The notes beneath the pieces are model-generated. The model did not search any database and was not told the origin of the DNA. It was given only the letters and a program-made list of their open reading frames with translations. From IMG/VR virus record IMGVR_UViG_3300031454_000005, positions 1-55,193 of that record: a DNA stretch of 55,193 nt; one strand, written 5' to 3'. Position numbers and translations under genes: made by a program. Shown piece by piece: positions 2,360 to 55,193 of this stretch. The DNA is from a virus. How positions within the stretch are numbered: the stretch's first letter is position 1; every line of letters begins with the position of its first letter.

Positions 2360-2369
2360 TAGGTGGGCT

Positions 2370-6070: not shown

Positions 6071-8616
6071 GCACTCCTGATCCTGGGGCAATCCGGGGAC
6101 TGGCGACCGGTCTGTGGGCCAGCCTGACGCGGGACGTCAAGGCGACCATCGACCGCCTGACGGACGTCCGCCGGGTGCAGGCGATCGAGGAAGACGGCCG
6201 GGTCACGATCGCGTCGACCAACCCCGACGCCCCGGCTCCCATGACGGTGTCGCGGTTGCGGGGTTCGACGTTCGCGCCGGGCGACGACGTGGTCACGATG
6301 CGGGTCGCCGGCTACGACGTCGCGATCGGAACGCTGGCGACGGCGGCTGACATGGTGGACAACGGTCAGGGCAATGGACCGGGTGGCACGCCCAACCAGA
6401 GCATCGATGTCTATGGACCGGGGCTGGGTCTGATCACTAGCAACCCGGCCGTAATGGATTTCAAGAACGGGTTCGCGCTCAGCGAACCCGTCCCGGACGT
6501 GGTCAGGCTCGACCTCGCCTACGGTGGGAACGGCACGGCGACGACCGTAGCGCGAAGCGATCACACCCACGTCGCGACATGGGATGTCCTGATCGTCATC
6601 CCCTACAGCATCCGCTATCAGGGCACCGTCCGGGCGATGACGACCAAGGAACGGTCGATGTGCGAGACCGTCGCCCGCCAGTTCTCCGGCCTCTATTCGA
6701 TGGCCTCCGGTGGCCTGATGGATGTGCGGGCGCGGGGCGTGTTCCGCGAAACGACCTGGGATCTGGATGCCGACCTCGCCGCGATCGGGAGCGGCTTGCC
6801 GGGGTTCGGCACGGGCGTCTGGATCGACGCCCAGCACGGCCAGCGGTTCCTCGATACCTACAACGGCCGGACCTACGACGCCCAGGTCATCATGGTCGGC
6901 AAGGCGCAGATCGACTCGACCGCCGACGGGCTCACCACGGGCGGCACGCCGGGCTGGTGTTTCCTCAACATCGGGGACGGCAACTACGACTTCTACGCCG
7001 GCCAGAACCGGCTTGCGGACGTGCTGGTCCATGAGATGAACCACCAGGTCGAATCGCGGATGCAGAACCTCGGCCTGGCGATCTCGCCGGTCGATGGATC
7101 GATACCCGGCACCACTGGCGCAGCGGCAATCAACAACGAGCCGCACCACAACTGGTTCTCCGGCTATATCGCCTGGTGGGACTACAACGACTTCTCCGGG
7201 CTGACCGACGACGGCCACGGCCCGACCGTCCACGCCGACACCCTGACGCTGCCCGACATCTACGTCGACCCGGACAACGGCTGGGGTGTGTTCACCACCG
7301 GAGGAACCGGCGACTACAACCAGAGCATCGACGTGTTCGGTACCGGCGTCGGCCAGATCACGTCCAACCTTGCCTATATCGACGTCAAGGACGGCCTGCT
7401 GGCGACGGAGCCGACCGTCGATGGTGTCCGGCTCGACGTGGACTTCACCGCGTCCGGCGGCTCCAACGGCACGACAACCAAGGTGGCGCGAGGCGATCAC
7501 ACACACGCGGCGGCGGACATCGCCTCTGGCATCATCGTCCCCGCCCGGCTCGGCATTGGCACCGCCTCGGCCACGACAACCCTGTATGGCGATGGGACGT
7601 GGAAGACGGCGCCGACCGGCGGAACGAGCACGACGTGGAACGGCGGCGATGTCACGGCGGCGACCCACTATCGCAACGTCGCGGTCGACGGGGACGACAG
7701 CGCGAGCGTCCGGCGCTGGGCGATGTATTCATCGGGGACGTTCGAGTCGTACGACGCCAACGGCTTTGTCCGCGCCAGCCTCGGGAACGGGTCGCTTTCG
7801 CTCTACGATTCGCTCGGCACGCAGACCGTCTACCTCCCCACGACGGGCAACCCGAGCGTTCCGCCCCGCTTCGCCGTGACCCCCACCGTGGGCGCGTCGG
7901 GCAGCGCGGTGAACGTCAGTCTCACGGGGCACACACACGTCAAGGGCGATGTCGGGCTCGGCAACGTCGATAACACGTCGGACGCGAGCAAGCCGGTCAG
8001 CACACCAACGCAGACCGCGCTCGACGCCAAGGCACCGCTCGCGTCGCCGGCCTTCACCGGAACGCCAACGGGTATCACCAAGGCGCACGTCGGGCTCGGC
8101 AACGTGGACAACACCGCCGACACAGCCAAGCCCATATCAACGGCGACGCAGGCCGCGCTCGACAGCAAGAGCAGCACCGCTCACACGGTCTCCCGGCCGA
8201 CCTCGAACTTCACCACGACGGCGACCGGCACCGTCGTCCCCACGGCCACCCTCGGTATCACGGTGGGGGCCAACGAGGTCTGGGAGTTCGTCATCGACCT
8301 GTTCACTGGATGCAGCGGGACCGGCGGGACCAAATGGGGCATCTACTGCACCCAGGCGGCGACGCTGCGCGGCAGCGCGATCGGCATGGCGGCGATCCCG
8401 ACCGCTGTCACCTCGGCATCCCTGACCACGAACGCCGGGCTGAGCGGCGTCGCGTTCAACACCGCCGCTCGCCAGGACGGGTGGGTCCGCATCGCCGGGA
8501 TCATCGCCAACGGGGCAACGGCGGGAACCTTCTACCCGGTCTGGGGAGCTGGCGTCGCGGGCGAAACCAGCACCCTGTACACCAACAGCCTGATCGTCGC
8601 CCATCGCATTGGGTAG
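6067..8616 (+). CDS. Tail fibre / receptor-binding protein with an embedded HExxH metallopeptidase-like segment
   Basis: ATGA overlap with the upstream gene; 849 aa. Contains two copies of the phage-fibre motif GLGNVDNT.D..KP.S...Q.AL..K (7951-8031 and 8089-8169). Contains two copies of NQSIDV.G.G.G.ITSN...G(G)NGT.TT.AR.DHTH (6394-6570 and 7318-7506). HEMNH is at 7030-7044. Confidence 0.8.
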   Translation: MSTPDPGAIRGLATGLWASLTRDVKATIDRLTDVRRVQAIEEDGRVTIASTNPDAPAPMTVSRLRGSTFAPGDDVVTMRVAGYDVAIGTLATAADMVDNGQGNGPGGTPNQSIDVYGPGLGLITSNPAVMDFKNGFALSEPVPDVVRLDLAYGGNGTATTVARSDHTHVATWDVLIVIPYSIRYQGTVRAMTTKERSMCETVARQFSGLYSMASGGLMDVRARGVFRETTWDLDADLAAIGSGLPGFGTGVWIDAQHGQRFLDTYNGRTYDAQVIMVGKAQIDSTADGLTTGGTPGWCFLNIGDGNYDFYAGQNRLADVLVHEMNHQVESRMQNLGLAISPVDGSIPGTTGAAAINNEPHHNWFSGYIAWWDYNDFSGLTDDGHGPTVHADTLTLPDIYVDPDNGWGVFTTGGTGDYNQSIDVFGTGVGQITSNLAYIDVKDGLLATEPTVDGVRLDVDFTASGGSNGTTTKVARGDHTHAAADIASGIIVPARLGIGTASATTTLYGDGTWKTAPTGGTSTTWNGGDVTAATHYRNVAVDGDDSASVRRWAMYSSGTFESYDANGFVRASLGNGSLSLYDSLGTQTVYLPTTGNPSVPPRFAVTPTVGASGSAVNVSLTGHTHVKGDVGLGNVDNTSDASKPVSTPTQTALDAKAPLASPAFTGTPTGITKAHVGLGNVDNTADTAKPISTATQAALDSKSSTAHTVSRPTSNFTTTATGTVVPTATLGITVGANEVWEFVIDLFTGCSGTGGTKWGIYCTQAATLRGSAIGMAAIPTAVTSASLTTNAGLSGVAFNTAARQDGWVRIAGIIANGATAGTFYPVWGAGVAGETSTLYTNSLIVAHRIG

Positions 8617-35479: not shown

Positions 35480-35836
35480 GTGGGACGTACCATCCGTACC
35501 CTGAAAAACCGGACGCTCATGCTCAACGCCCTCGCCGATGGTGAGAGCGTCATTACTGCGTGCGAGATGGCGGGTATCGGCAAGCGGTCCTACTACGATT
35601 GGCGCTGCGACGACGCCGAGTTCAACGCCGACGCCGACGCCGCCATGGAGCAGGGCGCCGACCGCCTCGAAGCCGAGGCGATGCGCCGGGCACTGGACGG
35701 TAGCGACGTCCTGCTGATGTTCCTCATCAAGGGCAAGCGACCGCACATCTACCGTGACAACGTCAAGCATGAGCACTCCGGGTCGGTCACGTTCTCGGAT
35801 CTCCACGCGCTCGCCGGTCAGGCGGCGCCGGAGTGA
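35480..35836 (+). CDS. terS: Terminase small subunit (HTH type)
   Basis: ACEMAGIGKRSYYDWRCDDAEFNADADAAMEQGADRLEAEAMRRALDGSDVLLMFLIKGKRP is the typical actinophage TerS pattern. Immediately upstream of TerL. Confidence 0.75.
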   Translation: MGRTIRTLKNRTLMLNALADGESVITACEMAGIGKRSYYDWRCDDAEFNADADAAMEQGADRLEAEAMRRALDGSDVLLMFLIKGKRPHIYRDNVKHEHSGSVTFSDLHALAGQAAPE

Positions 35837-37281
35837 CGGTTGCCGGACGGCTTCGCCCAACCGAGGCACGCGACATCCTCGGCTCAGCCCAGGATCCGGT
35901 CTGGTTCTGCGAGCACGTCCTCGGGCACGATCCCTGGCTGATGCCGCGTCAGATCATGCGCGCTGTCAATCAGCCTCGGGCTCGGGTCGCCGTGAAGTCC
36001 TGCCACTCCTCAGGGAAAACCTTTTCGGCGTCCGAGATGGTCCTGTGGTGGGTATTCGTCATGCGCGGGATCGCGATCACCACGGCCCCCACCTGGAACC
36101 AGGTCGAGAAGCTGCTCTGGCGCGAGATCCACATCGCGCATGCCGGCTCGCGCTTTCCGCTTGGCGGCGAACTGATTCAGACCGAACTCAAGCTCGGGCC
36201 CAACACGTTCGCGATCGGCCTCTCGACCAACGAGGGCGTCCGCTTCCAGGGCTGGCACGCGAGCCCCGGCCACCCGATCCTGATCATCCTCGACGAGGCG
36301 CCGGGCGTGGCGCCGGACATCCACGAGGCCATCGAGGGTATTCGTGCCGGTGGTGACGTGCGCCTGCTGGAGCTTGGCAACCCCGTCATCGCTTCTGGTC
36401 CGTTCTACGACGCCTTCACCACGCAGCGGGCGTCCTGGACGACGTTCACGATCGACGCCCTGGCGACGCCCAACTTCACCGACGACCTGTCCCGCCCGAT
36501 GACGATCGAGGAGCTCCGGACGCTGTCGGCCGACGAGCTGGCCCACGCCCCCCGGCCCTACCTCGTCACACGGCAATGGGTCCGGGAGAAGCTGGACGAA
36601 TGGGGGGAGGGATCGCCGCTCTGGGCCAGCCGGGTCCGGGGTCAGTTTCCGCAGCAGGGCGAGGACGCGCTGCTCTCGCTCGCCTGGCTGGAGCGGGCGT
36701 CCTCACCGACCGACCCGATCCTGGCACTGGCTGAGCCGATCGTCGCCGGCGTCGACGTTGCCGGTCCGGGCGAGGACGAGACCGTCCTGACCCTGCGCAC
36801 TGCTGGTCGCACCCCGCACCAGATCGTCTCGGTCCAGTCATGGGCCAGCGCCGACCCACGTGGCGCCGTCATCGCCGCGCTCGCGCCCTACCGCCATCGG
36901 CTCGTGACCGTCAATGTCGACGCGATCGGCGTGGGCTACAACTTCGCGCTCCACCTCGAGGACCAGGGCTTCCCGGTTACGCAGGTCAACGTCGGTGAGC
37001 GGCCGACGTCGGACTACACCGAACGGTTCGCCAACCTCAAGGCGCAGCTGTACTGGTCGCTTCGGGAAGCGCTTGCCGCCGGCGACATCGTGGGCCTGAC
37101 CGACGACGTCGCGGTGAGTCAGCTAGCGTCGATCCTCTATCGACAGGACAGCCGGGGCCGGGTCGCGATCGAGAGCAAGGAGGCGGCGCGGAAGCGCGGC
37201 GTCAAGAGCCCGGACCGGGCGGAGTCGGTGATGCTGGCGTTCGCGCCGCCGCGTAAACGACGAGGAGTGGGGTCCGCATGA
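35833..37281 (+). CDS. terL: Terminase large subunit
   Basis: GTGA overlap start. Walker A-like KSCHSSGKT, Walker B LIILDEAPG and nuclease-region GVDVAGPGEDETVL. 482 aa. Confidence 0.85.
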   Translation: MTVAGRLRPTEARDILGSAQDPVWFCEHVLGHDPWLMPRQIMRAVNQPRARVAVKSCHSSGKTFSASEMVLWWVFVMRGIAITTAPTWNQVEKLLWREIHIAHAGSRFPLGGELIQTELKLGPNTFAIGLSTNEGVRFQGWHASPGHPILIILDEAPGVAPDIHEAIEGIRAGGDVRLLELGNPVIASGPFYDAFTTQRASWTTFTIDALATPNFTDDLSRPMTIEELRTLSADELAHAPRPYLVTRQWVREKLDEWGEGSPLWASRVRGQFPQQGEDALLSLAWLERASSPTDPILALAEPIVAGVDVAGPGEDETVLTLRTAGRTPHQIVSVQSWASADPRGAVIAALAPYRHRLVTVNVDAIGVGYNFALHLEDQGFPVTQVNVGERPTSDYTERFANLKAQLYWSLREALAAGDIVGLTDDVAVSQLASILYRQDSRGRVAIESKEAARKRGVKSPDRAESVMLAFAPPRKRRGVGSA

Positions 37282-37565
37282 ATGAGCCGACCAGGGAGGC
37301 TGTACCGATGACCCGCAACGAACATGATCGCGACCGGGACCACGACTCTGGCCGGTTCGTCAGCGACGCCTTCGCCGACGCCAATCCGGACACCACGACG
37401 TCCGAGCTGGTGGCATCGCACGCCGTGACGGCCGACATGGTCGAGGAGGCGACACGAATCATCGACCAACTTGCGTCGAGCGGCCCGGCAAGCTGGTGGG
37501 CTGATCCGGCGAACGTGGCCCTGATGCTCCGGGTGGCGCTCGCGGCGAGAGGAGGCGGGAGGTGA
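37278..37565 (+). CDS. Hypothetical acidic protein
   Basis: ATGA overlap with the upstream gene; 95 aa. Confidence 0.5.
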   Translation: MNEPTREAVPMTRNEHDRDRDHDSGRFVSDAFADANPDTTTSELVASHAVTADMVEEATRIIDQLASSGPASWWADPANVALMLRVALAARGGGR

Positions 37566-37768
37566 ACTGGTATGTGACGGTGATTGTGTTCCAGTTGGTC
37601 TGTCTTGTCGGCATAGTCGCGGCCCTGCCCCTTATATGGGCGATCGAGACGGGACGCCTTGACGCTCATCTGGACGACATCCGTGGCGGCCGGATCGTCG
37701 GCACCTGTGTGGGTCTGCTGGTTATTGCAACAGCCTGCGGGCTTGTCGTAGGGATGGTGGCGTCATGA
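37562..37768 (+). CDS. Two-TM small membrane protein
   Basis: VTVIVFQLVCLVGIVAALPLIW and IVGTCVGLLVIATACGLVVGMV; 68 aa. Confidence 0.5.
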   Translation: MNWYVTVIVFQLVCLVGIVAALPLIWAIETGRLDAHLDDIRGGRIVGTCVGLLVIATACGLVVGMVAS

Positions 37769-39255
37769 CCCTTCCTGCCGATCCCCTAAAATGGGCCGTC
37801 ACCGCCTTCCGTGACGGCCGGAACCTCAACTACGAGACCTACGCGAAGTACCTTGCCGGCAAGCAATCACTGGAGTTCGCGACGGATCGGTTCCGCCTGG
37901 CCTTCGGCGACCTCGTCGAGGCCCTGACCTACAACCGGTGCGAAGCGGTGGTCGACGCCCACGCAGACCGCCTGCAGGTCGCTGGCTTCGCCGCCGACGA
38001 CGGCGTCCTCGCTCAGGCGGCCCAGGCCCTCTGGGACGCCAACCGGATGGACGTCCGGGAGGGGCATGTCGCGACCGACGCCTTTGCCCTCGGCGACAGC
38101 TATGTTGCCGTTGCGATGCACCCTGAACCGGGGCGAGGCGTCCAGTTCTGGACCCTGGACCCGCGTAACGTCCGGGTCCATTACAGCCTGGAAGCGCCGG
38201 GAGAGATCGACCTGGCCGCTCAGACGTGGCAGACCGAGGACGGACACTCCCGGTTGACCCTCTACTTCGCCGACCACATCGAGAAGTACGTCAGCCGGAC
38301 CAGGACGCCGTCGGGCTTGCCTGTCAGCGCCGTCGCGTTCGAGCGCTACCAGCCTGCGGACGAGCCGTGGCCGGTCGTGTTCCCTCCCGGCAGACCGGTC
38401 CCGGTGTTCGCATTCGCCAACAACGGGCGGACCGATTCCTACGGCGCAAGCGAACTGCGCAACGTCATCCCGATGCAGGACGGCGTCAACAAGACGCTCG
38501 CTGACATGGTGGTCGCGATGGAGTTCGCGGCTTTCCCGCAGCGCGTTCTGCTTGGTGTGGACCCACCGACCCCCGAGGAGCAGGCGATCTTCGACCGGTT
38601 CATGACGGGCGTCGACCGCATCCTGACCCTGAGCGATGCCAACTCCAAGATCGGGGAGTTCAGCGCCGTCAACATCGCCCAGTACCTCGCCATCGTCGAG
38701 TTCTGGGACAAGGCCATCTCCCGAGTCACCAAGGTACCGACGCACTACCTCGGCATGACGGGGGACTTCCCATCCGGCCGCGCCCTGCGGATCGCGGAGG
38801 GGCCGTTCATCGCCAAGCTCGAGGATCGCCAGCGGGCGTTCGGCGCGGTCTGGTCCGACATCATGACCTACGCCCTGATCCTGGACGGCAAGAGCATCGA
38901 GCCGGGCGACCTGCGGGTGAACTGGAAGAGCGCGGCACCACTGAGCTCGGAGGATCAACTGGACCTGGCGTTGGGCAAGAAGACGCTTGGGATGCCGTTC
39001 CCCCAGATCCTGCGCGAGCTGGGGTACGAGCCGACGCAGTTGGCAACGATCCTCGAAGACGGGCAGACGGACATCGAGGCGGAGCTTGCGGCGGTCCGGG
39101 AGGCGAAAGCGAAGGGCCTCCAGCTGATCGAGACGCTGCGGTCGCCATGGGCGCTGCGTGAGGCCGGGGTGCCGGACGACGCGGTGAAGGACATCGAGGA
39201 GCTCAACGGCATGGACGCGATGGACGGCCTCGGCGACGTTGGGGGAGGGCCATAG
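37765..39255 (+). CDS. Portal protein (SPP1 gp6-like)
   Basis: 496 aa. Position is after TerL. The pattern FAAFPQRVLLGV ... VPTHYLGMTGDFPSGRALRIAEGPFIAKLEDRQ is typical of SPP1-type portals. Confidence 0.8.
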   Translation: MTLPADPLKWAVTAFRDGRNLNYETYAKYLAGKQSLEFATDRFRLAFGDLVEALTYNRCEAVVDAHADRLQVAGFAADDGVLAQAAQALWDANRMDVREGHVATDAFALGDSYVAVAMHPEPGRGVQFWTLDPRNVRVHYSLEAPGEIDLAAQTWQTEDGHSRLTLYFADHIEKYVSRTRTPSGLPVSAVAFERYQPADEPWPVVFPPGRPVPVFAFANNGRTDSYGASELRNVIPMQDGVNKTLADMVVAMEFAAFPQRVLLGVDPPTPEEQAIFDRFMTGVDRILTLSDANSKIGEFSAVNIAQYLAIVEFWDKAISRVTKVPTHYLGMTGDFPSGRALRIAEGPFIAKLEDRQRAFGAVWSDIMTYALILDGKSIEPGDLRVNWKSAAPLSSEDQLDLALGKKTLGMPFPQILRELGYEPTQLATILEDGQTDIEAELAAVREAKAKGLQLIETLRSPWALREAGVPDDAVKDIEELNGMDAMDGLGDVGGGP

Positions 39256-39316
39256 CATCGCTTCGCTGAGCCCGTCCCGGACGATCAACCGCTAGCCACC
39301 GAACAGGAGTAAACCC

Positions 39317-39763
39317 ATGGCTTTCACCTCGACCGCGGCCGGGAACCTCGGCGCCCACCTCGCCAACGCCCGGGTCAACTGGCTGACCGGCCCCATCAAG
39401 ATCATGCTCTGCGCCTCGACGTTCGTCCCCAACAAGGACACGACGATCTACAAGAGCGACGTGACAGGCGAGCTTGCTACCGGAGCGGGCTACACGCTCC
39501 GGGGACTGGCGCTGACTGCCAAGACCGCCGCCTATGACGCCGCGACCGACACGACGCCCCTGTCCGCCGCCAATGCCGTCTGGACGACCGCAGCGGGGCA
39601 GACGCTTACGTATCGTGTGTACGTGATCTACAGCGACACCGGCACCGACACGACCTCGCCGGTGATCGGCTGGGGCGTGGAGAGCGCCGACCAGACGGCG
39701 TCCAATGGTGGTACCGCGACCATCACGTTCGACGCGACCGGCATCGTCCGGCTGGCCACCTAA
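39317..39763 (+). CDS. Hypothetical beta-rich virion-associated protein
   Basis: CAGGAG RBS; 148 aa, rich in Thr/Ala/Gly. First ORF of the insertion between the portal and the MuF-like gene. Confidence 0.55.
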   Translation: MAFTSTAAGNLGAHLANARVNWLTGPIKIMLCASTFVPNKDTTIYKSDVTGELATGAGYTLRGLALTAKTAAYDAATDTTPLSAANAVWTTAAGQTLTYRVYVIYSDTGTDTTSPVIGWGVESADQTASNGGTATITFDATGIVRLAT

Positions 39764-39766
39764 TCC

Positions 39767-40486
39767 GTGCCCGGTCCGTACACACGGCACACCACCGGAC
39801 AGGTGATCGACGCGATCGACATCAACGAGCTGCAGGATGGGCTAGAAGGCGCGGCCCCAAGCATCGTGACGACCGCTGCCTTCGATGACTTCGTGAGCAA
39901 TACCGGGAACGGTGCGCTCGGCTGGAACAACACCTTCGGCGTGTCATCCAACTCCGTCGTCCATTACACCGGGCATCCGGGCGTCCTCACGCGGTCCAGC
40001 GGTGCGACGGCGAGCAACTATGCCGCGCACATGCTCCCCAACGGCTTCGATCCGGTCGAGTTCTTCGACGTGACATTCATCTTCGCAATGGGAACCGCGT
40101 CGGCGGGCGCGGACGTCCTGTTTCGGGTCGGCATCGGATCACACAGCGCATTGACATCCAATCCGTCTACCGCCGGAGCGTGGCTGGAAAAATTGGCGGC
40201 GGATACCGCCTGGTGGCGCGTCACCCGGAACGCGAGTGTCCAGACTCGGGAGACAACAGGCATCAACGTCGTCGCCCTCGACTGGATCAAACTGCGCATA
40301 CGCCGGATCTCGTCCACGAGTATCGGGTTCACGATGAACAACGCCTCCGAGGTGGCCATGACGACCAACCTACCTTCGGCCGGGCAACTGGTCCAGCCAT
40401 TCTTCGCAATCCTCGGAACGACGACGACCGCACGGACGGTCCTCGTCGACCTGTTCACGATGACCATTACCGGCCTCGCACGATAG
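39767..40486 (+). CDS. Fibre-like protein (tail/head fibre N-terminal motif plus jelly-roll-like C-terminal domain)
   Basis: The N-terminal TGQVIDAIDINELQDGLE matches the motif common at the N-termini of prophage fibre/hyaluronidase-like proteins. 239 aa. Confidence 0.5.
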   Translation: MPGPYTRHTTGQVIDAIDINELQDGLEGAAPSIVTTAAFDDFVSNTGNGALGWNNTFGVSSNSVVHYTGHPGVLTRSSGATASNYAAHMLPNGFDPVEFFDVTFIFAMGTASAGADVLFRVGIGSHSALTSNPSTAGAWLEKLAADTAWWRVTRNASVQTRETTGINVVALDWIKLRIRRISSTSIGFTMNNASEVAMTTNLPSAGQLVQPFFAILGTTTTARTVLVDLFTMTITGLAR

Positions 40487-40496
40487 GAGCGGTTCC

Positions 40497-40736
40497 GTGG
40501 ACATTCTCGTTTCCATTAGCGGCGCGCAATCAAGCGGCGGCGGCCGTCTTTCCGCCGGCCTCCTCATCGCTACCTCGACTGGATACCAGCTTCAGGCCGA
40601 CATCATCGTGGACTTCGCTTCCTCGACGACGCAGATGAACGCCAACGTCCGGTCACAGGCTCTGGCGATCCTGAACGGCAGCGGGATCATCGCAACGACC
40701 AGCGACCGGATGCGTGTCGCAGGCGGCTTCGTCTAA
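40497..40736 (+). CDS. Hypothetical 79-aa protein
   Basis: GTG start with tight spacing to both neighbours. Confidence 0.4.
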   Translation: MDILVSISGAQSSGGGRLSAGLLIATSTGYQLQADIIVDFASSTTQMNANVRSQALAILNGSGIIATTSDRMRVAGGFV

Positions 40737-40739
40737 CCA

Positions 40740-42284
40740 GTGGCCATCTTCGGGACGAGCGTCTTCGGGACCGGCAAATACGGCACCGAGGCGACGGGCA
40801 CCAACGCCTCGGCGTCCGCGCCTGCCGTGATCCTGACCGCGTCCGCCCCGATCCCGGTCTCGACCGCCATCCGGCTCGCAACGGCCACCTCGCCCGCGTC
40901 CACCCTGATCGCCTCGGCTCCTGCGCCGGTTGGCACGTCCGTCCAGCAGGCGTCCGCCGTCTCTGCGGTCTCAACCGTCACCGCATCTACACCCGCTCCC
41001 GTCAGTCTGATCGGTCAGGTTGCGTCGTCGTCGGCCAATGCGGCGACGGTCACGACCAGCGCACCCACGTCGGTTAGTTCCACCGTCCGGGTCGCATCCG
41101 CCGCCACCGGCGCAGCCACGGCGACCGCGTCGGCCCCGGCCCCCGTGAGTACGGCGGCTCAGGTCGCGTCATCCCCGGCTACTGCCTCAACCGTTACGGC
41201 ATCCGCTCCGGCCTCAACCTCCTCAACGGTTCGGGTCGCACCGTCGGCGGCGACCGCCGCAACCCTGACCGCGACCGCGCCAGCACCCGTCAGCACCGCG
41301 GTCCAGCAGGCGTCCTCCCTGTCTGCGGCTGCGACCGTGACGACCACGGCCCCGGCTCCGGCGTCAACGGCGGTCCGGATGGCGTCCGGCACAGCCCCGG
41401 CCAGTACCGTCGCCGTCACCGCGCCAACCCCGGTCTCGTCGGTCGTTCTCGTCGCCAGTTCAGCGGCTCCGGCCTCGGCTGTCACGATCACGGCCCCCGC
41501 AGCGACCAGCACGACGATCCGTTCCGCGGCGGGGAACATCGTTCCATCGAACGTCACAATCACCGCCCCGCCCCCCACGGCGAGCTCAACGGCGGGGGCG
41601 GGATCGGTCAGCTCGACAGCCCCGGCAACCGCCGTAGCGATCACCGTCCCCGCGGCGAGTGCATCCTCGGTCCGGGTGGCGACGTCGGCGGTGCCGATCT
41701 CCACGCTGACGGCGACCGCTCCGGCTCCGACCAGTTCGATCGGGACCAACGCCGGGTCTGCGTCGTCCGCTGCACCGGCCGTCACGCTGGTGGCCGTGAT
41801 CCCGGCTCCGGTGGCGACCTCCATTCGGCAGGCGACGACGACCGCTGGGGTATCGCTGGTCACGATCACGGTACCGGCACCGGAAGGCGCGGCGCTGTCC
41901 GTCTCGACCTCGGCCGCGGCGCTCGCACCGGCGGTGACGACGTGGCTGGTCATCCCGGCGCCGGTAGCGGTTTCGACATCGATCGCCAGCGCCTCGGCAG
42001 GCGTGGTGGTCCTGGTGATCGCGGCACCGCCTGCTACTTCGATCGCGACATCGCAGGCGGCCGTCGGGATCGGTGATGCCTTCCGGGCAATCGTCCCCGG
42101 CCCCGTCGCGTTCCGAACCGCCGTGCCGTCCCTCGGTGCGTTCCGGGTGCCGGTGGCCGTCCTCACGGCGACACGGGCGACCGTCGTGCCGGTGGGTGCG
42201 GTCCGTGATCCGGTCCCCGGCCCTGGCGCGACGAGACAGATCATCCCGGCCGGTGTGGCCGTGACCCGTGAGCGAAAGGACTAG
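40740..42284 (+). CDS. Ala/Ser/Thr/Pro/Val tandem-repeat protein (about 17 x 24 aa, then about 7 x 10 aa)
   Basis: GTG at 40740 lies 3 nt after the upstream stop, and the stop lies 5 nt before the next ATG. N-terminus FGTSVFGTGKYG. Repeat unit approximately ..A.TVT.TAPAPVSTAV..AS. The C-terminus has GAFR/VAFR-type decamers. Both antisense frames are also open (repeat artefact). Confidence 0.6.
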   Translation: MAIFGTSVFGTGKYGTEATGTNASASAPAVILTASAPIPVSTAIRLATATSPASTLIASAPAPVGTSVQQASAVSAVSTVTASTPAPVSLIGQVASSSANAATVTTSAPTSVSSTVRVASAATGAATATASAPAPVSTAAQVASSPATASTVTASAPASTSSTVRVAPSAATAATLTATAPAPVSTAVQQASSLSAAATVTTTAPAPASTAVRMASGTAPASTVAVTAPTPVSSVVLVASSAAPASAVTITAPAATSTTIRSAAGNIVPSNVTITAPPPTASSTAGAGSVSSTAPATAVAITVPAASASSVRVATSAVPISTLTATAPAPTSSIGTNAGSASSAAPAVTLVAVIPAPVATSIRQATTTAGVSLVTITVPAPEGAALSVSTSAAALAPAVTTWLVIPAPVAVSTSIASASAGVVVLVIAAPPATSIATSQAAVGIGDAFRAIVPGPVAFRTAVPSLGAFRVPVAVLTATRATVVPVGAVRDPVPGPGATRQIIPAGVAVTRERKD

Positions 42285-42289
42285 GCACG

Positions 42290-42727
42290 ATGGCACTCAT
42301 CAAGGACATCATCATCCGGGGTGACGACGAGGAATGGACGATCGCCCTGACCGACTCGGCCGGTGCTCCGCTCCCGTTGCGGACCCTTCAGATCCAGATC
42401 GTCGTCAAGCCGCCCGGCACCGACCTCGCCAGTGACAGCGACGCCCTCTATCGCCATACCGCGACCTTTGCGGCGGACGGCACGCTGACCGGCGCGGTCG
42501 GTATCCGGCTCGGCGGGACGGTGGACAGCGGCATCGTCACCGAGTTCCTGACGCCCACGGACATTGTGGCGTTGGCGACGGCCTATGACGCAATGGCCGG
42601 CAAGGACCCACGCATTCTGGCGCTCTGGGACGTGCAGGTACGGGACGCCTTCGGTCGGCACAAGACGGTCCTGTCGGGCCAGCTCTCGATGGTGCGCGAC
42701 ATCGGGCGCGTCCGCGACATCGCGTAA
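42290..42727 (+). CDS. Hypothetical Ig/BppU_N-like beta-sandwich protein
   Basis: IIIRGDDEEWTIALTDSAGAPLPLRTLQIQIVVKPPG recalls the N-terminal domains of baseplate upper proteins. 145 aa. Confidence 0.45.
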   Translation: MALIKDIIIRGDDEEWTIALTDSAGAPLPLRTLQIQIVVKPPGTDLASDSDALYRHTATFAADGTLTGAVGIRLGGTVDSGIVTEFLTPTDIVALATAYDAMAGKDPRILALWDVQVRDAFGRHKTVLSGQLSMVRDIGRVRDIA

Positions 42728-42746
42728 CCGGAGGAGGAGGCGAACG

Positions 42747-42953
42747 ATGATGCACGTCTTGCGCGAACCGAATTCCTATCCCATCGTGCTGATCGTGCCC
42801 CATGACGGCGCGCCGCCGACCCGCGTGGACACCGGCCTGATGGCGACCTGGTTCAAGGGCGAACTGATCGTCATGGTGTCGCCCGACGAGCTGGACGGCC
42901 TGATCGAGACACTGACGGCGGCGGTGAGCACGGCAAGAACGGAGGATGACTGA
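42747..42953 (+). CDS. Hypothetical 68-aa protein
   Basis: GGAGGAGGAGG lies 6 nt upstream of the ATG. Confidence 0.5.
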   Translation: MMHVLREPNSYPIVLIVPHDGAPPTRVDTGLMATWFKGELIVMVSPDELDGLIETLTAAVSTARTEDD

Positions 42954-43147
42954 TGAGCCTGCTGGACTGGTTGTTCCCGCCTCGGACCAGCCTCGCAGAC
43001 TTGCATCGTCACTGGGAGCGTGAAGACGAACTTGCCAATGAACGACTGCGCATCTGGTTGGAACATCAGCGGGAGACAGAGCGCCTGAATAACGAGCAAT
43101 GGCAGACGGTGACTACGCGGATGCCGAAGGACGGAGACGCAACATGA
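42953..43147 (+). CDS. Hypothetical 64-aa protein
   Basis: TGATG overlap with the upstream gene. Charged and helical. Confidence 0.45.
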   Translation: MSLLDWLFPPRTSLADLHRHWEREDELANERLRIWLEHQRETERLNNEQWQTVTTRMPKDGDAT

Positions 43148-43231
43148 GCGACTGTAGTAACCGTTACCGTGTTGGTCTGTATCACCATCGTCCTGTGCGT
43201 CGGGATGCTGGCAAGTCGGAAGGGGTAGCGA

Positions 43232-43438
43232 ATGGATACGGACCGGGTCAGGCTCGACGCCGACGAATGGAACGAGGACATCGACCGATTGGTCAGCGAC
43301 CACTATGGGGATCAAGGGCATGACCGCGACTGGCTTCGCGCGTTCGGCGAGGGTCTAATTCGGGCCGCAAACCGTCCGGACAGCACCGATGACGAGAACG
43401 ATCACGCGGAACGGGTAGGCGATGCCATCCGACCGTGA
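43232..43438 (+). CDS. Hypothetical acidic 68-aa protein
   Basis: GGAAGGGG RBS. Confidence 0.45.
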   Translation: MDTDRVRLDADEWNEDIDRLVSDHYGDQGHDRDWLRAFGEGLIRAANRPDSTDDENDHAERVGDAIRP

Positions 43439-44357
43439 CCGCAGCATCACCCCGCGTCTCGACCGGATGCTGGCCGATCTGGGCCGGGAGGTCGAACATA
43501 TCGTGCTCGACGTTGCCGGGTCACCCCTGACACCGATGACGAGCGCGCTGCGCGGCCGAGCGATGCCGAGGATCACGCGGGCGCTGTCGTCGGTCTACCC
43601 CGTCCGGCGCGGGGCGACGTCACCGCTGGAGACGCTGATCCTGGACGAGGCGACGGCGACGTGGGACCGGGTGCTCGTCGCCGAGGCGGACCGGTTGCGG
43701 GGCCAACTGTCCGATCGTCTCCTCGCGGCGATCGACGCCGGCGACGACGGCCTCGCCGAACTGCTGCGGATGAGCCGTCTGGCGCCGGACCGCCGCCTAG
43801 CGATCGCCCGGTCGCTGGACGATACGCGGACATGGGTCGATCCCAACGGCTACCGGCTCAGCGACCGGGTCTGGAACGCGCGACAGGGTGTCCGCCGGGC
43901 CATCGACCAGGAGCTGCGGCTCGGCATCGTGCGCGGCACCAGTCCGGTCGATGTCGCGGCCCGCCTGGAACGGTTCCTGACACCCGAGGGGGCGCGAGCG
44001 CGGAGCCGGGTCGTGCTGCGACCGGGCGACGAGCCGGGCACCGGCTCCTACAGCGCCCGCCGACTGGCCCGGACGGAGCTGACGGGGGCAAGAGCACAGG
44101 CGACGGTCGAGGCGGCGAGCCGGATCCCGACGACGCGGGGAATGAAATGGAACCTGTCGAATCGGCACCATCCGGGCGGGGACGAGTGCGACGAACTCGC
44201 CGGGGCAGATCGGTACGGATTGGGCTCAGGAGTCTACCCGTTGACGGCGCTTCCGAGGTTGCCACAACATCCGATGTGCCTTTGCTTCTGGACGACGAGC
44301 TTCCCAAGCCGGGAAGAGAGCGACCGGATCATTCGGGCGCGGTACGGGTTGGGTTGA
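43422..44357 (+). CDS. Head morphogenesis protein (SPP1 gp7 / Mu F-like)
   Basis: ARRLARTELTGARAQATVEAA ... WNLSNRHHPGGDECDELAG ... LPQHPMCLCF matches the Phage_Mu_F C-terminal pattern. Confidence 0.75.
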   Translation: MPSDRDRSITPRLDRMLADLGREVEHIVLDVAGSPLTPMTSALRGRAMPRITRALSSVYPVRRGATSPLETLILDEATATWDRVLVAEADRLRGQLSDRLLAAIDAGDDGLAELLRMSRLAPDRRLAIARSLDDTRTWVDPNGYRLSDRVWNARQGVRRAIDQELRLGIVRGTSPVDVAARLERFLTPEGARARSRVVLRPGDEPGTGSYSARRLARTELTGARAQATVEAASRIPTTRGMKWNLSNRHHPGGDECDELAGADRYGLGSGVYPLTALPRLPQHPMCLCFWTTSFPSREESDRIIRARYGLG

Positions 44358-44370
44358 GGAGAGCAAGCTG

Positions 44371-44514
44371 ATGGAGCCACGACCGGGACCGCAAGCCGAA
44401 ACACCGGGTGACGACGTTCGCTGGCTAGCTATGTTGATCCGGCAAGGGCTGTTGCTCATTGTCGCTGGAATTGAGCGCCGGTACGGGATTGGCCGGCAAC
44501 AGGAGGTGAAGTGA
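44371..44514 (+). CDS. 47-aa protein with one hydrophobic helix
   Basis: GAGGAG lies 9 nt upstream of the ATG. The stop overlaps the start of the next gene (GTGATG region). WLAMLIRQGLLLIVAGI. Confidence 0.4.
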   Translation: MEPRPGPQAETPGDDVRWLAMLIRQGLLLIVAGIERRYGIGRQQEVK

Positions 44515-45605
44515 TGGCTATGAGCTTGTTGGATCAGTACCTAGAGCGGCCCGAAATCAAGCGGCTACTTCTTTCGCTACGAGCCGAGGACATCGATGCC
44601 ATAAAGAATCATGGACTCCGGTCGCTAGACGGACGCATCTTAGCCGAAATGGAACGGTCTGGCGCCATCGGGTTGCCGGGCATCGTCCCGTTCCAAATCG
44701 ACAACGTCGCGGATTATGCACGCCAAATCTCGCGCGAGTCCAAAAGCGATAAGGGCCGCTACGATCGTTTCGTTTCGACGGTGCCATGTTTCACCCCGCC
44801 ATTCCCGTCGACTTGGTTTGAGTGGAATGATCCATCGGCGGGGCCCGATGAGGCGACAGTAAATGCCGTCCATGTTGTGGCGGAGGACTTATGGGAGTCC
44901 CTAGAGCCGGATGAAGCAACGGCCGTCGGGGAGCGGTATTACCTGAGCAAGCTACCGCCGGGTTGGTCCCACCTTGAAGGCATCTCGCTTGGGCCGGTGC
45001 GGTGGGTCCTGGACGTTTTCTCCCATTTCCGAGTGCGCGGTCGCGTCATTGACGCCTATGAGTGTCTGCTCGTTCTTGTAAGCCCGTCAGGTGAACTATC
45101 AACGGTCTACCAGAATGGCTCGCCTGCTGGAGCGGCGACACTGACCTATAGCAGCGACCCAGAACGTTGGAGAGTCCTCACTTTAGAGCAGCAGAATATC
45201 CGGGCCCGCACGCTCAAAGAACACTTCGCTACAGCCCTTATTGCAATCGGCTTCACTCATTGTAAAAACGTCAGCCAGGTCGAGTCGCCGCCGACCCCGC
45301 CGGACGTTGCGGCGAAGCGACGCAAAAAACTGGGACGCCCCGAGACCCGGTTTCGTCTCTTGATGATCGACCCGATGCGCGAAACCTTTGAGCGTAGCGA
45401 GGGGTCAGGCGAGCCAGGGCCGGGTCGGTCGTTCCATATCTGCCGCGGCTACTTCGCCGCCTACAGCGAGGATAAGCCGCTCTTCGGCAAACTGACAGGG
45501 AGGTTCTGGAGGCAAGCGCACACTCGCGGTCATATCGTCAACGGCGTCGTCGCCAAGCATTACCAGGTCAAGCATGGCGAACTATCGCAACTGACGGCGC
45601 CATGA
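44514..45605 (+). CDS. Hypothetical 363-aa protein, low-G+C accessory gene in the head module
   Basis: AGGAGG lies 7 nt upstream of the ATG. Visibly lower G+C than the neighbours. Followed by a canonical U-tract terminator. No motif recognised. Confidence 0.65.
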   Translation: MAMSLLDQYLERPEIKRLLLSLRAEDIDAIKNHGLRSLDGRILAEMERSGAIGLPGIVPFQIDNVADYARQISRESKSDKGRYDRFVSTVPCFTPPFPSTWFEWNDPSAGPDEATVNAVHVVAEDLWESLEPDEATAVGERYYLSKLPPGWSHLEGISLGPVRWVLDVFSHFRVRGRVIDAYECLLVLVSPSGELSTVYQNGSPAGAATLTYSSDPERWRVLTLEQQNIRARTLKEHFATALIAIGFTHCKNVSQVESPPTPPDVAAKRRKKLGRPETRFRLLMIDPMRETFERSEGSGEPGPGRSFHICRGYFAAYSEDKPLFGKLTGRFWRQAHTRGHIVNGVVAKHYQVKHGELSQLTAP

Positions 45606-50916: not shown

Positions 50917-51474
50917 ATGGCAGGACGGATTGGACTCGGGGCCAGGGACATGGCCATCGGCGTCAAGGACCCCACGGCGGGAACCTTCGGCGCAATGATC
51001 GACGCGCCGGGACTCGCGGGCTTCTCGATCGACTATGAGGGCGACGTCGAGGAGCTCTGGGGCGACGGCATCCTCCAGGCATCGGTCGCCAAGAGCGTCG
51101 GTGCGTCGGGCTCGTTCGAGCTCGTCGTCCAGGACCTTGCGGTCAAGGCGGCCCTCACCGGCGGCACGGTCGTCGTCGCGGGGACCGGCGCGACCGCCGT
51201 GACGACCCTCTGGGTTCCGTCGACGCCGAAAATGCCGCTGGCCCAACTCGTCGGCATGGCGCGCGGCGTCGGCACGGACGGCGGAACGCTGCTCGGCCGC
51301 GTCTACCAGGGGCGCGTCACCAGCGGTGGCGGCTTTGAGCTGACCGACGGCTACGCGACCAGTTCCTACGATTACACCGCCCTCGACATGGGCGGGGCCC
51401 TGTTCGCCATTGAGCAGCATGCGGCCAGCCTGACGGCAATCCCGTCCACCGCGGTGAGCACCCTGCCGGTCTAG
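50917..51474 (+). CDS. Major tail protein
   Basis: GGGAGGA RBS; 185 aa, beta-rich. Followed by a strong hairpin and then the chaperone pair and TMP. Confidence 0.65.
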   Translation: MAGRIGLGARDMAIGVKDPTAGTFGAMIDAPGLAGFSIDYEGDVEELWGDGILQASVAKSVGASGSFELVVQDLAVKAALTGGTVVVAGTGATAVTTLWVPSTPKMPLAQLVGMARGVGTDGGTLLGRVYQGRVTSGGGFELTDGYATSSYDYTALDMGGALFAIEQHAASLTAIPSTAVSTLPV

Positions 51475-52270: not shown

Positions 52271-52598
52271 GCATCACCTGATGGGCGCGGCCTATGGGCA
52301 GCCACCATCGACCTGGGCGGACATCGGTGACCCTGATCTCGCCGATGAGTACGACGAAGCCGCCCATGATGTTGGCACCCAGATCGAGCGACTGCAGACG
52401 GCCACGAAGCTCGAACGGGCACCCAAGCCGGCGAAGAACGCGCCGCAGATGGTCCAGCGGCCGATGTACACGAATGAGCAGATCAACTGGGTGCTCGGCT
52501 TCGTCCTCGCGCACGAACCAGACGAGGACCAGATCGGCTCCGACGACCTCTATGACGCCCTGATGGCCGGGCTGGACGACCAGCCGCCACACGCTTGA
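51584..52598 (+). CDS. Tail assembly chaperone frameshift product (gpGT-like), shift near 52239-52250
   Basis: The downstream frame is open from 52161 to 52598 with no credible RBS or start. It is +1 (equivalently -2) relative to 51584..52270. Candidate slippery sites are GCC_CCG (C run 52239-52242) and UUU_C (52244-52247). Confidence 0.5.
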
Positions 52599-52718
52599 CC
52601 GACCTGACACCGTCAATTTCCCGGAGATTTGACACCGTCATCCGACCCGCTCCCCGGCCCAGGGACGCACGGACCGTGACCAAGACAACCGCCCGTGCTC
52701 CCCGGATCGGGAGCGACG

Positions 52719-55193
52719 ATGAGTGACGGAGCTTTAGGGGGCGCCAAAGCCACCATCAGCCTCGACGCCAAGGGGGCGATCGCTGCACTAAAAGAGTTCG
52801 GCAGCGCCGCCGACCAGACGATGCGGTCGGTCGGGCAATCGGGCACCCAGGCGGCCGGTGGCTTTGCATCGTTCGAGAAGACACTCAGCAGCAGTAACGT
52901 CCAGGCGGCTGGCGGTGCCCTGGCCGGGATCGGTGCCGCCGTCGGGCTGATCGGCGGCTTCGCGATCAACAGCGCCATGCAGTTCGATCAGGGCATGGCC
53001 AATGTCCGGGCGGCGACCGGCGCGACGGGGGTCGAGTTCGACAGCCTCCGCAACCTCGCGCTCCAGATCGGCAAGGACACCAGCTTCAGCGCGAACGAGG
53101 CCACCCTCGCGATCGAGGAGCTGGCCAAGGCGGGCACGTCCACGACGGACATCCTCGGCGGTGCGGCCGAGGCCACGACGGCCCTCGCGGCTGCTGGCGG
53201 CGTGGACCTCCCGACCGCCGCGACGGTGATGTCGGCCGCACTCAACCAGTTCGGGCTCGCGGCCGGGGATGCGTCCGGGTACGTCGACGACATGGGGCAG
53301 AGCGTCAACAACGCCGCCCACGTCGCGGACGTGATCTCGGCCGCCGCGACGGCCTCCGCCACCGGCGTGACCGAGATGGGATCGTCGCTGTCGTACGTCG
53401 GGACCAGCGCGGCCGCTCTCGGCGTCCCCCTCGAGGACACGGCGACCGCGATCGCCCTCATGGCCAACCAGGGCATCGTCGGCTCGTCCGCGGGCACATC
53501 CCTCAACCAGGTCCTGCTCTCGCTCGCGAACCCGACGGCCAAGGCGGCGGGGGTGATGGGTGAGCTTGGCCTGTCCTTCACTGACCTGAACGGCAACATG
53601 CTGCCGCTGCCGGACATCATCGGCTCCGTGGCCACGGCCACCGAGGGGATGGGCACGGCCCAGCGTGCCGCCACGCTCGAAACGCTGTTCGGGGTCGAGG
53701 GCGGCCGGGCGATGAATGCCCTGTTGCCGTCCATGTCCGCCGAAGTGCAGGGCACGGCTGACTCCTGGGACGGCATGAACGCGTCCGTGACGCAGGTCGG
53801 CGCCGCCCAGGAGCAGGCTCAGGCCCGTCTCAACAGCACGTCCGGCCGGCTGGAGGCGATGAAGGGGTCGCTGGAGACCGTCGGAATCGTCATCGGCTCA
53901 AAGCTGCTCCCCGCCTTCGACGCCATCATCCTCGGCGCGACGAGCCTCCTTAACACCTTCCTGAACCTGCCCTCCGGCATCCAGACCGTCATCGCCGCCG
54001 TGGTTGGGGTGGCGGGTGCGTTCGCCGGGATCGCGGGCGCCGCCATCCTGATTGGTCCGCGGCTGATCCAGGTGGCCCAGGGGTTCCGCGTCATCTCCAT
54101 CGCCATGCGGGCGATGGTCGTCGGCAACCCGATCCTGCTGGCGATCGCGGCGGCCATCGGTCTCGTGCTGCTTGCGGTCGCCGCCTACAAGACCAACTTC
54201 CTCGGTTTCGGCGACGCGGTCCGGGCAGTCGGGAGCAAGATCAAGGACCTGCTCGCCCCATTCGGCCGACTCATCAACCTGTTCCAGAACTTCCGCACCT
54301 TCGGCATGAATCCGGTGCAGGCGGCGCTCCAGGCGCTCAAGGTCGCTTTTCCCGCGCTCGGCGGAGTCATCACCTCGATCCAGAACAAGGTCTCCCAGGT
54401 CACGGACATGTTCCATAACCTGACCGCCTTCGGCATGGACCCCGTCAAGGCGGCGGTGACGGCGCTCTCCGCGGCGTTCCCGCGACTCGGAGAGACGTTC
54501 GCACTGGTCGGATCGTTCATCGGCAACCTGGTCAGCATGTTCCAGAACCTCTGGGATGGTATCCAGCGCCTCGTCAGCGGTGATTTCTCCGGGGCATTCG
54601 ACGCGTTCAAGGCCGCTGGTCTTGACGCAATCCAGGTGATCTGGGACGGCATCCGAGTCCTGCCGACGTTGCTGCTCAACCTCCTGACCGGCATGAATTG
54701 GTCGGATATCGGCTCTAAGATCACGGACACTATCCGATCGGCCTTCGATGGGCTGCGATCCGGTGCAGGTGACCTGTGGTCCTGGCTCACCGACGGGATT
54801 CGGTCGGCGCTCCAGTCCATTTCCAGCGGCATCTTCGACTGGCTCAACAACACGAGTGCATCCATCACCAGTGGGCTGAGCGCCGCCTGGGACGCCATCA
54901 CCTCGCTGACATGGGATGACTTCATCCCGGACGTCGCCTGGGATGTCTTCATCGGAGCCATCAATCTCGCCACCAAGGTCGGCGACTTCTTGTGGGACAC
55001 ATTTGTGACGGCAGTTGACCTTGCCGTCAAGGTCGGTGCGTTTGCCTGGAGCGCATTCGTCACCGCCGTCGATCTCGCCAAGCGCGTCGGCGCCTTCGCG
55101 TGGTCCACATTCGTAACTGCAGTGGACCTCGCCGCCAAGGTCGGCGCCTTCGCGTGGTCCACATTCGTAACTGCAGTGGACCTCGCCGCCAAG
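52719..55193 (+). CDS. Tail tape measure protein, N-terminal 825 aa (continues at nt 47 after the 46-nt overlap)
   Basis: ATG at 52719. AMQFDQGMANVRAATGATGVEFDSLRNLALQIGKDTSFSANEATLAIEELAKAG matches the TP901-type TMP core. There is no stop before the window end, which is why the ORF is absent from the track. The frame is continuous with 2..2359. Confidence 0.85.
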   Translation, partial: MSDGALGGAKATISLDAKGAIAALKEFGSAADQTMRSVGQSGTQAAGGFASFEKTLSSSNVQAAGGALAGIGAAVGLIGGFAINSAMQFDQGMANVRAATGATGVEFDSLRNLALQIGKDTSFSANEATLAIEELAKAGTSTTDILGGAAEATTALAAAGGVDLPTAATVMSAALNQFGLAAGDASGYVDDMGQSVNNAAHVADVISAAATASATGVTEMGSSLSYVGTSAAALGVPLEDTATAIALMANQGIVGSSAGTSLNQVLLSLANPTAKAAGVMGELGLSFTDLNGNMLPLPDIIGSVATATEGMGTAQRAATLETLFGVEGGRAMNALLPSMSAEVQGTADSWDGMNASVTQVGAAQEQAQARLNSTSGRLEAMKGSLETVGIVIGSKLLPAFDAIILGATSLLNTFLNLPSGIQTVIAAVVGVAGAFAGIAGAAILIGPRLIQVAQGFRVISIAMRAMVVGNPILLAIAAAIGLVLLAVAAYKTNFLGFGDAVRAVGSKIKDLLAPFGRLINLFQNFRTFGMNPVQAALQALKVAFPALGGVITSIQNKVSQVTDMFHNLTAFGMDPVKAAVTALSAAFPRLGETFALVGSFIGNLVSMFQNLWDGIQRLVSGDFSGAFDAFKAAGLDAIQVIWDGIRVLPTLLLNLLTGMNWSDIGSKITDTIRSAFDGLRSGAGDLWSWLTDGIRSALQSISSGIFDWLNNTSASITSGLSAAWDAITSLTWDDFIPDVAWDVFIGAINLATKVGDFLWDTFVTAVDLAVKVGAFAWSAFVTAVDLAKRVGAFAWSTFVTAVDLAAKVGAFAWSTFVTAVDLAAK
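54901..55193 (+). repeat. 54-nt tandem coding repeats of the TMP, including two identical terminal units
   Basis: 55094-55139 equals 55148-55193 equals 1-46. The unit encodes VGAFAWSTFVTAVDLAAK. Confidence 0.9.

Follow-up and report, generated by a model that had tools for sequence, protein, structure and literature searches.

A protein of seventeen 24-residue repeats, a probable accessory-fiber stalk, in a phrog_644-linked phage gene cassette

The repeat protein

We analyzed a 55,193-nucleotide stretch of viral DNA (IMG/VR record IMGVR_UViG_3300031454_000005, positions 1 to 55,193, here called the window; 55 kb, about 65% G+C) in which an open reading frame (ORF) on the + strand encodes a 514-amino-acid (aa) protein built largely of 24-residue units. 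We found that this ORF is a real phage gene, and it is probably a late gene whose product forms the stalk, or shaft, of an accessory virion fiber used for adsorption. The features of this gene and those overlapping it are listed below; its closer relatives, found by tblastn, lie on the contigs L001 (IMG/VR contig 3300031454_000243), L017, L018, L019, and L020.

40740 (GTG start) to 42284, + strand: the repeat protein, 514 aa.
40740 to 40805, + strand: N-terminal aromatic-Gly motif, aa 1 to 22, MA[IV][FY]G..[V.][FY]GT[GA].YG.E, kept in L001, L018, and L020.
40806 to 42047, + strand: seventeen 24-residue units, aa 23 to 436, located with a unit hidden Markov model (HMM) and lag analysis.
42075 to 42281, + strand: seven Arg/Pro decamers of the type xGAFRxxVPx, aa 446 to 514 (lag-10 identity 0.354, z 6.6).
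41701 to 41812, + strand (L020:3171-3324): a recombination and indel point in the repeat array, placed by a drop in identity and a 153-nt offset.
41159 to 42244, - strand: an antisense ORF of 361 aa with 4 stops in L001, not a gene but a by-product of composition.

Five residues, Ala (131), Thr (79), Ser (74), Val (69), and Pro (51), account for 79% of the 514 aa, and the Gly content is 5%. The charged residues are 15 Arg and 2 Lys versus 3 Asp and 3 Glu, with the positive excess in the C-terminal 70 residues. When the protein was compared with itself, identity at a lag of 24 residues was 0.318 (z 10.8 versus 200 shuffles), and lags of 48 and 72 gave z values of 11.0 and 9.2 in the same shuffle test; the lag analysis found no 8- or 15-residue sub-period. 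An HMM made from 11 perfect-register units found 17 units in the protein, with the consensus ASSxAxASTVTASAPAPVSTxVRV. Register is perfect in units 1 to 11 (aa 23 to 286), and the later units include one 51-aa double unit as well as 3-aa indels, which explain a secondary peak at lag 51. In the decamers, Arg residues fall at positions 449, 459, 469, 479, 489, 499, and 510. This tail is the most conserved segment of the protein, with 88% identity and a ratio of nonsynonymous to synonymous substitution rates (dN/dS) of 0.24 relative to L001; it is kept in L017 and L020, and the tail in L018 differs but is likewise Arg/Pro-rich. The aromatic-Gly N terminus takes the form 'VFGTS' in a further contig, L005, and a globular domain stands in its place in L017 and L019. 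A preliminary description of this DNA had proposed a 514-aa protein with about seventeen 24-aa units and about seven decamers, and the two lag analyses and the HMM count show that it was accurate.

Reading frame, age, and copy number of the repeats

A 79-aa gene stops 3 nt upstream of the repeat gene, and the ATG of a 145-aa gene follows 5 nt downstream; the start, stop, and 3- to 5-nt spacings of the repeat gene are conserved when compared with its homolog, a 466-aa protein in L001. The + frame is free of stops in the window and in L001, L017, L018, L019, and L020, and it stays open across indels of 48 to 153 nt. Between the window and L001, its dN/dS is the lowest of the six frames (0.41 overall and 0.24 to 0.52 by segment), the ranking of the frames is the same in three collinear segments, and substitutions by codon position number 151, 85, and 219. 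The antisense frames carry 1 to 20 stops in one or both homologs and have dN/dS values above that of the sense frame; the best of them has 1 and 4 stops in the window and L001, respectively, and a dN/dS of 0.50.

It had also been noted that all three overlapping frames are open, and two antisense ORFs (361 and 236 aa) do overlap the repeat gene. However, the observed antisense open run of 373 aa equals what codon-shuffled sense ORFs give (mean of 370 aa), so the openness of the antisense frames follows from codon composition and is no evidence of coding. Third-position G+C content (GC3) was discarded as a frame discriminator, since the sense and -1 frames share their third positions. In L017, L019, and L020, the ORFs called automatically over the repeats are antisense (82 to 421 aa; L020:2203-3894, L017:9518-10759, and L019:10670-12247, all minus strand), and the sense gene is omitted. 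The sense proteins were therefore never deposited, which is part of the reason for the silence of the databases described below, and high-GC repeat genes rich in A/S/T/P/V may be misannotated on the antisense strand as a rule. These calls and the uninformative GC3 would suit an antisense ORF as the true gene, or a noncoding region, but we regard either as virtually impossible given the stops and higher dN/dS in the antisense frames, their match to the codon-shuffle expectation, the conserved boundaries of the sense gene, and its openness through indels; the strand and frame first assigned to this protein were right.

Between units, the mean nucleotide identity is 53% (maximum, 68%) and the amino acid identity is 46%. 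Identity at third codon positions is 34.7%, compared to the 34.6% expected from base composition, and Tandem Repeats Finder reported no array of 24-aa period in the DNA. Since third-position identity is at chance while the amino acid pattern is kept, the duplications are old and the pattern is under selection. This is what the preliminary description had supposed, and the dN/dS of 0.24 to 0.52 relative to the L001 ortholog agrees with it. A recent slippage array was rejected, given the lack of a Tandem Repeats Finder array of this period and the saturated synonymous sites.

The number of units differs between relatives, with 11 in L018 (a protein of 368 aa), 15 in L001, 17 in the window, and at least 19 in L020, where the protein is interrupted by the contig end. 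The L020 contig is 96.7% identical in nucleotides to the window from the portal gene on, over 38533-41812, and then 81% identical over 41701-42272, with an offset of 153 extra nt, or 51 aa, equal to two units. Because the drop in identity coincides with this indel, a recombination point lies within the array, and these alignments suggest that recombination there brings together new combinations of the protein's two ends. Copy-number changes between relatives are always in frame, involve whole units, and occur among diverged copies. Length variation between isolates had been put forward as a mark of nonfunctional low complexity. The length does vary, from 11 to at least 19 units, but in-frame gain or loss of whole units is the behavior of a fiber stalk, so this test was too strict and does not make the protein a low-complexity product.

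The gene cassette, its relatives, and the link with phrog_644

The repeat gene is the fourth of five closely spaced genes that form a cassette on the + strand.

39296 to 42737, + strand: the five-gene cassette (g148, g239, g79, the repeat protein, and g145), with edges set by blastn and tblastn homology to IMGVR_UViG_3300031454_000243 (L001/L002/L003).
39317 to 39763, + strand: g148, a member of the uncharacterized family phrog_644 (E 1.2e-24) and the marker gene of the module.
39767 to 40486, + strand: g239, with an SO2946-like C-terminal domain, a jelly-roll (PF22237, E 2.2e-9).
40497 to 40736, + strand: g79, a small protein conserved in L001/L016 (68%) and L020 (100%).
42290 to 42727, + strand: g145, a member of the uncharacterized family phrog_1084 (E 1.5e-5).

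Divergence between the window and L001 is low at the cassette edges, where g148 is 90% identical (dN/dS, 0.17) and the decamer tail and g145 are 88% identical, and high in the middle, where identity is 54% for g239, the most divergent gene of the cassette, 68% for g79, and about 60% for the repeats. No match to g79 was found in Pfam, PHROG, or NCBIfam, and no promoter- or terminator-like sites were found inside the cassette on the + strand. The jelly-roll protein g239 is a candidate binding head that would be encoded apart from the stalk. In a single observation, L018, both the tail of the repeat protein and g145 have diverged (30% identity for g145, E 3e-4) and g148 is still 76% identical; g145 is a possible partner of the decamer tail.

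The cassette directly follows the portal gene and precedes a MuF-like gene in the window, L001, L017, L018, and L020. In L001/L003, the cassette is conserved while the portal, MuF-like, and major capsid proteins do not match those of the window, and this conserved block beside unrelated head genes indicates that the cassette moves between phages as one block. The window as a whole has no close relative among 50,697 phage records (megablast of 37000-45000), and its portal is at most 29% identical to the portals of Streptomyces and other actinophages. When contig L004 (IMGVR_UViG_3300031454_000054) is compared with window positions 35833-39763, terminase and g148 are each 80% identical and the intervening portal is 29% identical; judged from this alignment, the portal gene itself is exchanged between related phages.

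Elsewhere, the window encodes minor tail and fiber-like proteins at 2241-8613, and its major tail protein gene lies at 50917-51471. Long high-GC3 minus-strand ORFs at both window ends (436-2187 and 52292-55192) adjoin the tail genes and may be antisense artifacts of a tape-measure gene spanning the junction of a circularly permuted sequence. Between the MuF-like and scaffold genes lies a 364-aa ORF (44511-45605, + strand) that a GC3 filter missed, so its third-position G+C is below that of its neighbors; it may be an inserted accessory gene. ARAGORN found no tRNA or transfer-messenger RNA genes in the whole window.

Relatives with variant architectures were reached through homology to g148. 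In L017 (8904-10760) and L019 (10461-12299), a globular domain of about 160 to 230 aa is fused N-terminal to the same repeats. These fusion genes directly follow the phrog_644 gene, with no equivalents of g239 or g79, and the fusions indicate a stalk that acts jointly with a globular head. The two globular domains have no similarity to each other or to those of the Gordonia phages discussed below, and BLASTP of the L017 domain against L006, Vasanti, and Sixama proteins found no match.

An exhaustive phmmer search with the repeat protein over 1.84 billion representative proteins returned only four matches (P0009 to P0012; E 1e-14, 7e-8, 1e-5, and 9.5e-4), in which a globular or Laminin_G domain is followed by 10 to 20 units of 24 aa, of the type 'LPATALTLTANAPQAVTTENNF'. 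Like the window protein, these have a 24-residue period and the core T-x-T-A-x-A-P-x-x-V-x-T, and a phrog_644 gene lies just upstream of three of the four. They differ from it in belonging to unrelated phages, in their size and large N-terminal globular or lectin-like domains (659 to 1802 aa, one with Laminin_G_3), in their short helical-looking C termini without an Arg/Pro decamer tail, and in units that are rich in L/N/E/Q rather than S/A/P. Column permutation of the unit profiles gave p values of 0.0012 to 0.0019 against P0009 to P0011 and 0.016 against the Gordonia phage protein Vasanti gp28. The repeat family had at first not been recognized; this stands for Pfam, PHROG, NCBIfam, and PDB, but with four distant relatives, the family extends beyond this phage.

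Other searches were silent. The repeat protein had no match in Pfam, PHROGs (up to E 10, including phrog_7114), or NCBIfam; tblastn found nothing when the 50,697 phage records were searched with the repeat protein and with g145, or when cultured phages were searched with the repeat region of P0010. Nor did the full repeat protein or its C-terminal 115 aa match anything in word-indexed searches of a collection of 5.8 billion proteins, likely because low-complexity words swamp the candidates and because of the antisense gene calls in the source contigs. Neither the sense nor the antisense products had an exact match in a 15-billion-protein collection, a metagenome scan returned only the L001 contig, and a genome (prophage) scan returned nothing. 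Matches of the repeat protein to neocarzinostatin PDB sequences were set aside as chance (E >=0.03), and when g148, g239, g145, and a profile of the g148 family were searched against PDB sequences, no useful match emerged. BLASTP found no match between g239 and Vasanti gp24 or between g145 and Sixama gp103.

The gene g148 lies 977 nt upstream of the repeat protein on the same strand. Its homologs include gp26 and gp104 of the Gordonia phages Vasanti and Sixama, respectively, Rhodococcus phage REQ3 orf58, gp6 of the satellite MiniFlayer, and Caulobacter phage phiCbK gp075, and a phrog_644 gene is upstream of 24-aa repeat proteins in Vasanti (gp28), Sixama (gp105), phiCbK (gp76), and L005. An IMG/VR census yielded at least 505 phrog_644 loci, carried by phages of Actinobacteria, phages of Caulobacter, and metagenomic phage contigs of unassigned host; the best 80 were examined, and 61 of these had sufficient downstream sequence. 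A strongly periodic ORF lies just downstream in 15 of the 61, with periods of mostly 22 or 24. Periodic ORFs made up 15 of 221 downstream ORFs, compared to 2 of 397 upstream controls (14-fold; Fisher p 9e-6), and the best period was lag 24 in 13 of 14 phrog_644 loci with a periodic ORF and lag 22 in the other. Thus, the link between phrog_644 and the repeat proteins is real, though not universal.

We define a family, the phrog_644-linked A-x-A-P repeat proteins of phages, which is in no catalog. The window protein has the 22- to 24-residue period, the A-x-A-P core in register, the similarity, and the upstream phrog_644 gene of this family; it is repeat-only, without a globular or lectin-like domain in the same polypeptide, and the jelly-roll g239 is a separate gene. 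Pfam, PHROGs, and NCBIfam contain neither the repeat family nor its association with phrog_644, and we found no account of either in literature searches.

The module of L005 (7875-11507), a lower-GC contig, has the same order: a phrog_644 gene, genes for proteins of 156, 347, and 161 aa, the repeat protein, and a 111-aa protein. Its repeat protein is a repeat-only product of 224 aa with 24-aa units, and an M15-like lysin gene follows the module.

Function of the repeat protein and comparison with known phage systems

AlphaFold2 runs with a single sequence and with five sequences gave mean pLDDT values of 50.7 and 45.1 and pTM values of 0.53 and 0.48, respectively. In both models, each unit between aa 29 and 428 has two strands of 6 to 7 residues and the C-terminal tail is without structure; Foldseek against the PDB found no significant match, the best being beta-helix domains at E 7.3. 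The preliminary description had suggested a beta-solenoid or stacked-strand fiber. A fiber role fits the gene context, but at a pLDDT of 45 to 51 and with the negative Foldseek result, the solenoid fold is not established.

We propose that each 24-residue unit would contribute the strands 'STVTAS' and 'STAVRVAS', with turns at 'APAPV' and 'SxAxA', and that the seventeen units, by stacking or interlocking, would form a long, stiff rod with almost no charge, whose length would be adjusted as whole units are added or lost. The aromatic-Gly N terminus would dock separately encoded globular proteins, namely, the g239 jelly-roll and perhaps g79, and the Arg/Pro tail of seven decamers would anchor the rod to the virion, either by itself or via g145. 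The phrog_644 protein g148 would be a dedicated partner of the repeat proteins, as an adaptor or assembly factor, and the whole five-gene cassette would be swapped between phages as an adsorption module. We infer the rod shape, the assignment of its two ends, and the adsorption role from gene context and prediction.

Several points weigh against a fiber stalk with a dedicated phrog_644 partner. The cassette lies among head genes, from portal to MuF, distant from the tail-tip genes at 2241-8613, and the dN/dS of the repeats (0.43 to 0.52) is looser than that of neighboring genes (0.17 to 0.29). AlphaFold2 confidence is low, with no significant Foldseek match. The repeat protein has no significant pairwise similarity to the minor tail proteins of Gordonia phages (BLASTP E 0.8; no phrog_7114 match), and 'minor tail protein' is itself an annotation of those proteins rather than an experimental result. 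Only about 25% of the census phrog_644 loci have a strictly periodic neighbor, and the stalk role is itself a proposal drawn from gene context and prediction.

A head or neck fiber, anchored at the capsid or at the portal/connector and making the first reversible contact with the host surface or an appendage, is on balance unlikely, but by analogy with the phiCbK head filament and the collar fibers of podophage GP4, and given the adjacency to the portal, it is a serious alternative. The position of the cassette between portal and MuF-like genes in the window, L001, L017, L018, and L020 fits such a site, as do the adjacency of the g148 homologs of phiCbK and MiniFlayer to capsid genes and the presence of a normal tail-tip gene set elsewhere in the window phage. 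So do phiCbK gp76, a proposed head filament (PMC3556154), and the PF23148 adaptor, which binds fibers round the head-to-tail adaptor (PMC11445570) and is present in the Vasanti module. However, in Vasanti, Sixama, and L005, the module follows tail genes or lies beside lysis genes, and the attachment site therefore cannot be deduced from gene order; neither g79 nor g145 matches PF23148 at E <=0.01, and the phiCbK assignment is itself unproven.

It is improbable that the protein is instead a flexible tether, rich in A/S/T/P, possibly glycosylated, and lacking a defined fold, that acts as a mere spacer or has no structural role. The composition, the low AlphaFold2 confidence, the relaxed dN/dS of the repeats, and the variable copy number would all suit a tether. 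But a strict 24-residue register is held over 11 consecutive units despite saturated synonymous sites, whereas a disordered PT- or mucin-like linker would be expected to have no conserved register or unit. The period and the core T-x-T-A-x-A-P-x-x-V also recur in unrelated phages with other compositions, for example 'LTLTANAPQAVTTENNF', beta-branched residues alternate, the two-strand prediction is reproducible, and indels occur in whole units only.

An internal or ejected virion protein near the portal, with its Arg-rich C-terminal tail on DNA or portal, would suit the gene position between portal and MuF-like genes and the net positive charge, most of it in the C-terminal 70 residues, but we consider it very improbable since its relatives have the lectin-like or globular domains expected in external fibers, the module lies beside tail or lysis genes in other phages, and inspection of the sequence showed none of the transmembrane or hydrophobic segments that ejection proteins usually have.

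The fiber-stalk reading can be extended tentatively. Repeats of 22 to 24 residues with an A-x-A-P core, together with phrog_644, could be a widespread, undescribed two-part fiber system of tailed phages, in which phrog_644 is the adaptor or assembly partner, the phiCbK filament is one instance, and the window protein is the simplest form, a stalk alone whose head is detachable, with a new tail of seven decamers. In such a system, the decamer tail might wrap a ring-shaped virion component, and much of the repeat family would be missing from protein databases through antisense gene calls.

Fibers decide which hosts are bound. A modular, exchangeable cassette whose stalk can vary in length is relevant to host-range evolution and phage engineering. 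The work also describes a repeat family and its conserved pairing with a phrog_644 gene, neither of which is in any domain database, ties this pair to a candidate for the long-unidentified head filament of phiCbK, and exposes a systematic annotation error, in which antisense ORFs over high-GC A/S/T/P/V repeat genes hide the proteins from protein-level searches.

In tailspike beta-helices, the T4 gp5C triple beta-helix, and the adenovirus triple beta-spiral, short repeated beta units build a rod, and the number of units sets its length. The likeness of the window protein to these shafts lies in its predicted two-strand periodicity; its unit is without the 8- or 15-residue sub-period, and the Foldseek search gave it no significant match.

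The Gordonia phage proteins Vasanti gp28 (phrog_7114) and Sixama gp105 have about eleven 24-residue units of the type 'GxPAxAxASAPxGxVxAVRN', in which the spacing of 'ASAP' and 'VR' is that of the window protein (p 0.016). Their genes lie one or two genes downstream of the phrog_644 gene in the tail/lysis region, and the proteins end in a globular domain of about 180 to 300 aa. As read from the sequences, their relation to the window protein consists in motif and period. In Vasanti, the gene between the phrog_644 and repeat genes encodes gp27, a member of PF23148 (E 3e-24), the family of the podophage GP4 fiber-tail adaptor. In GP4, fifteen copies of the Ig-like PF23148 protein ring the head-to-tail adaptor and hold three sets of fibers (PMC11445570). 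In the satellite MiniFlayer, the phrog_644 homolog opens a 'putative adsorption module' (PMC10690885).

The phiCbK protein gp76 is the published best candidate for the flagellum-binding head filament and was undetected in virions (Gill et al. 2012, PMC3556154). Like the window protein, it is encoded directly downstream of a phrog_644 homolog, gp075, in the head-gene region (L014:5950-12330), and the first 1,963 of its 2,799 aa end in roughly 24-residue 'GDIGTITVxAPEG' units. It differs in being very large (2,799 aa) and Gly-rich (21% Gly), with a ConA-like lectin domain, compared to 514 aa, 5% Gly, and no Pfam domain for the window protein, and the two have no detectable similarity. The gp075-gp076 pairing may help to identify the phiCbK filament. 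Phage fiber or 'minor tail' proteins built of repeats are a known kind, and what is new here is a protein that is stalk only, with a separate head and a decamer tail.

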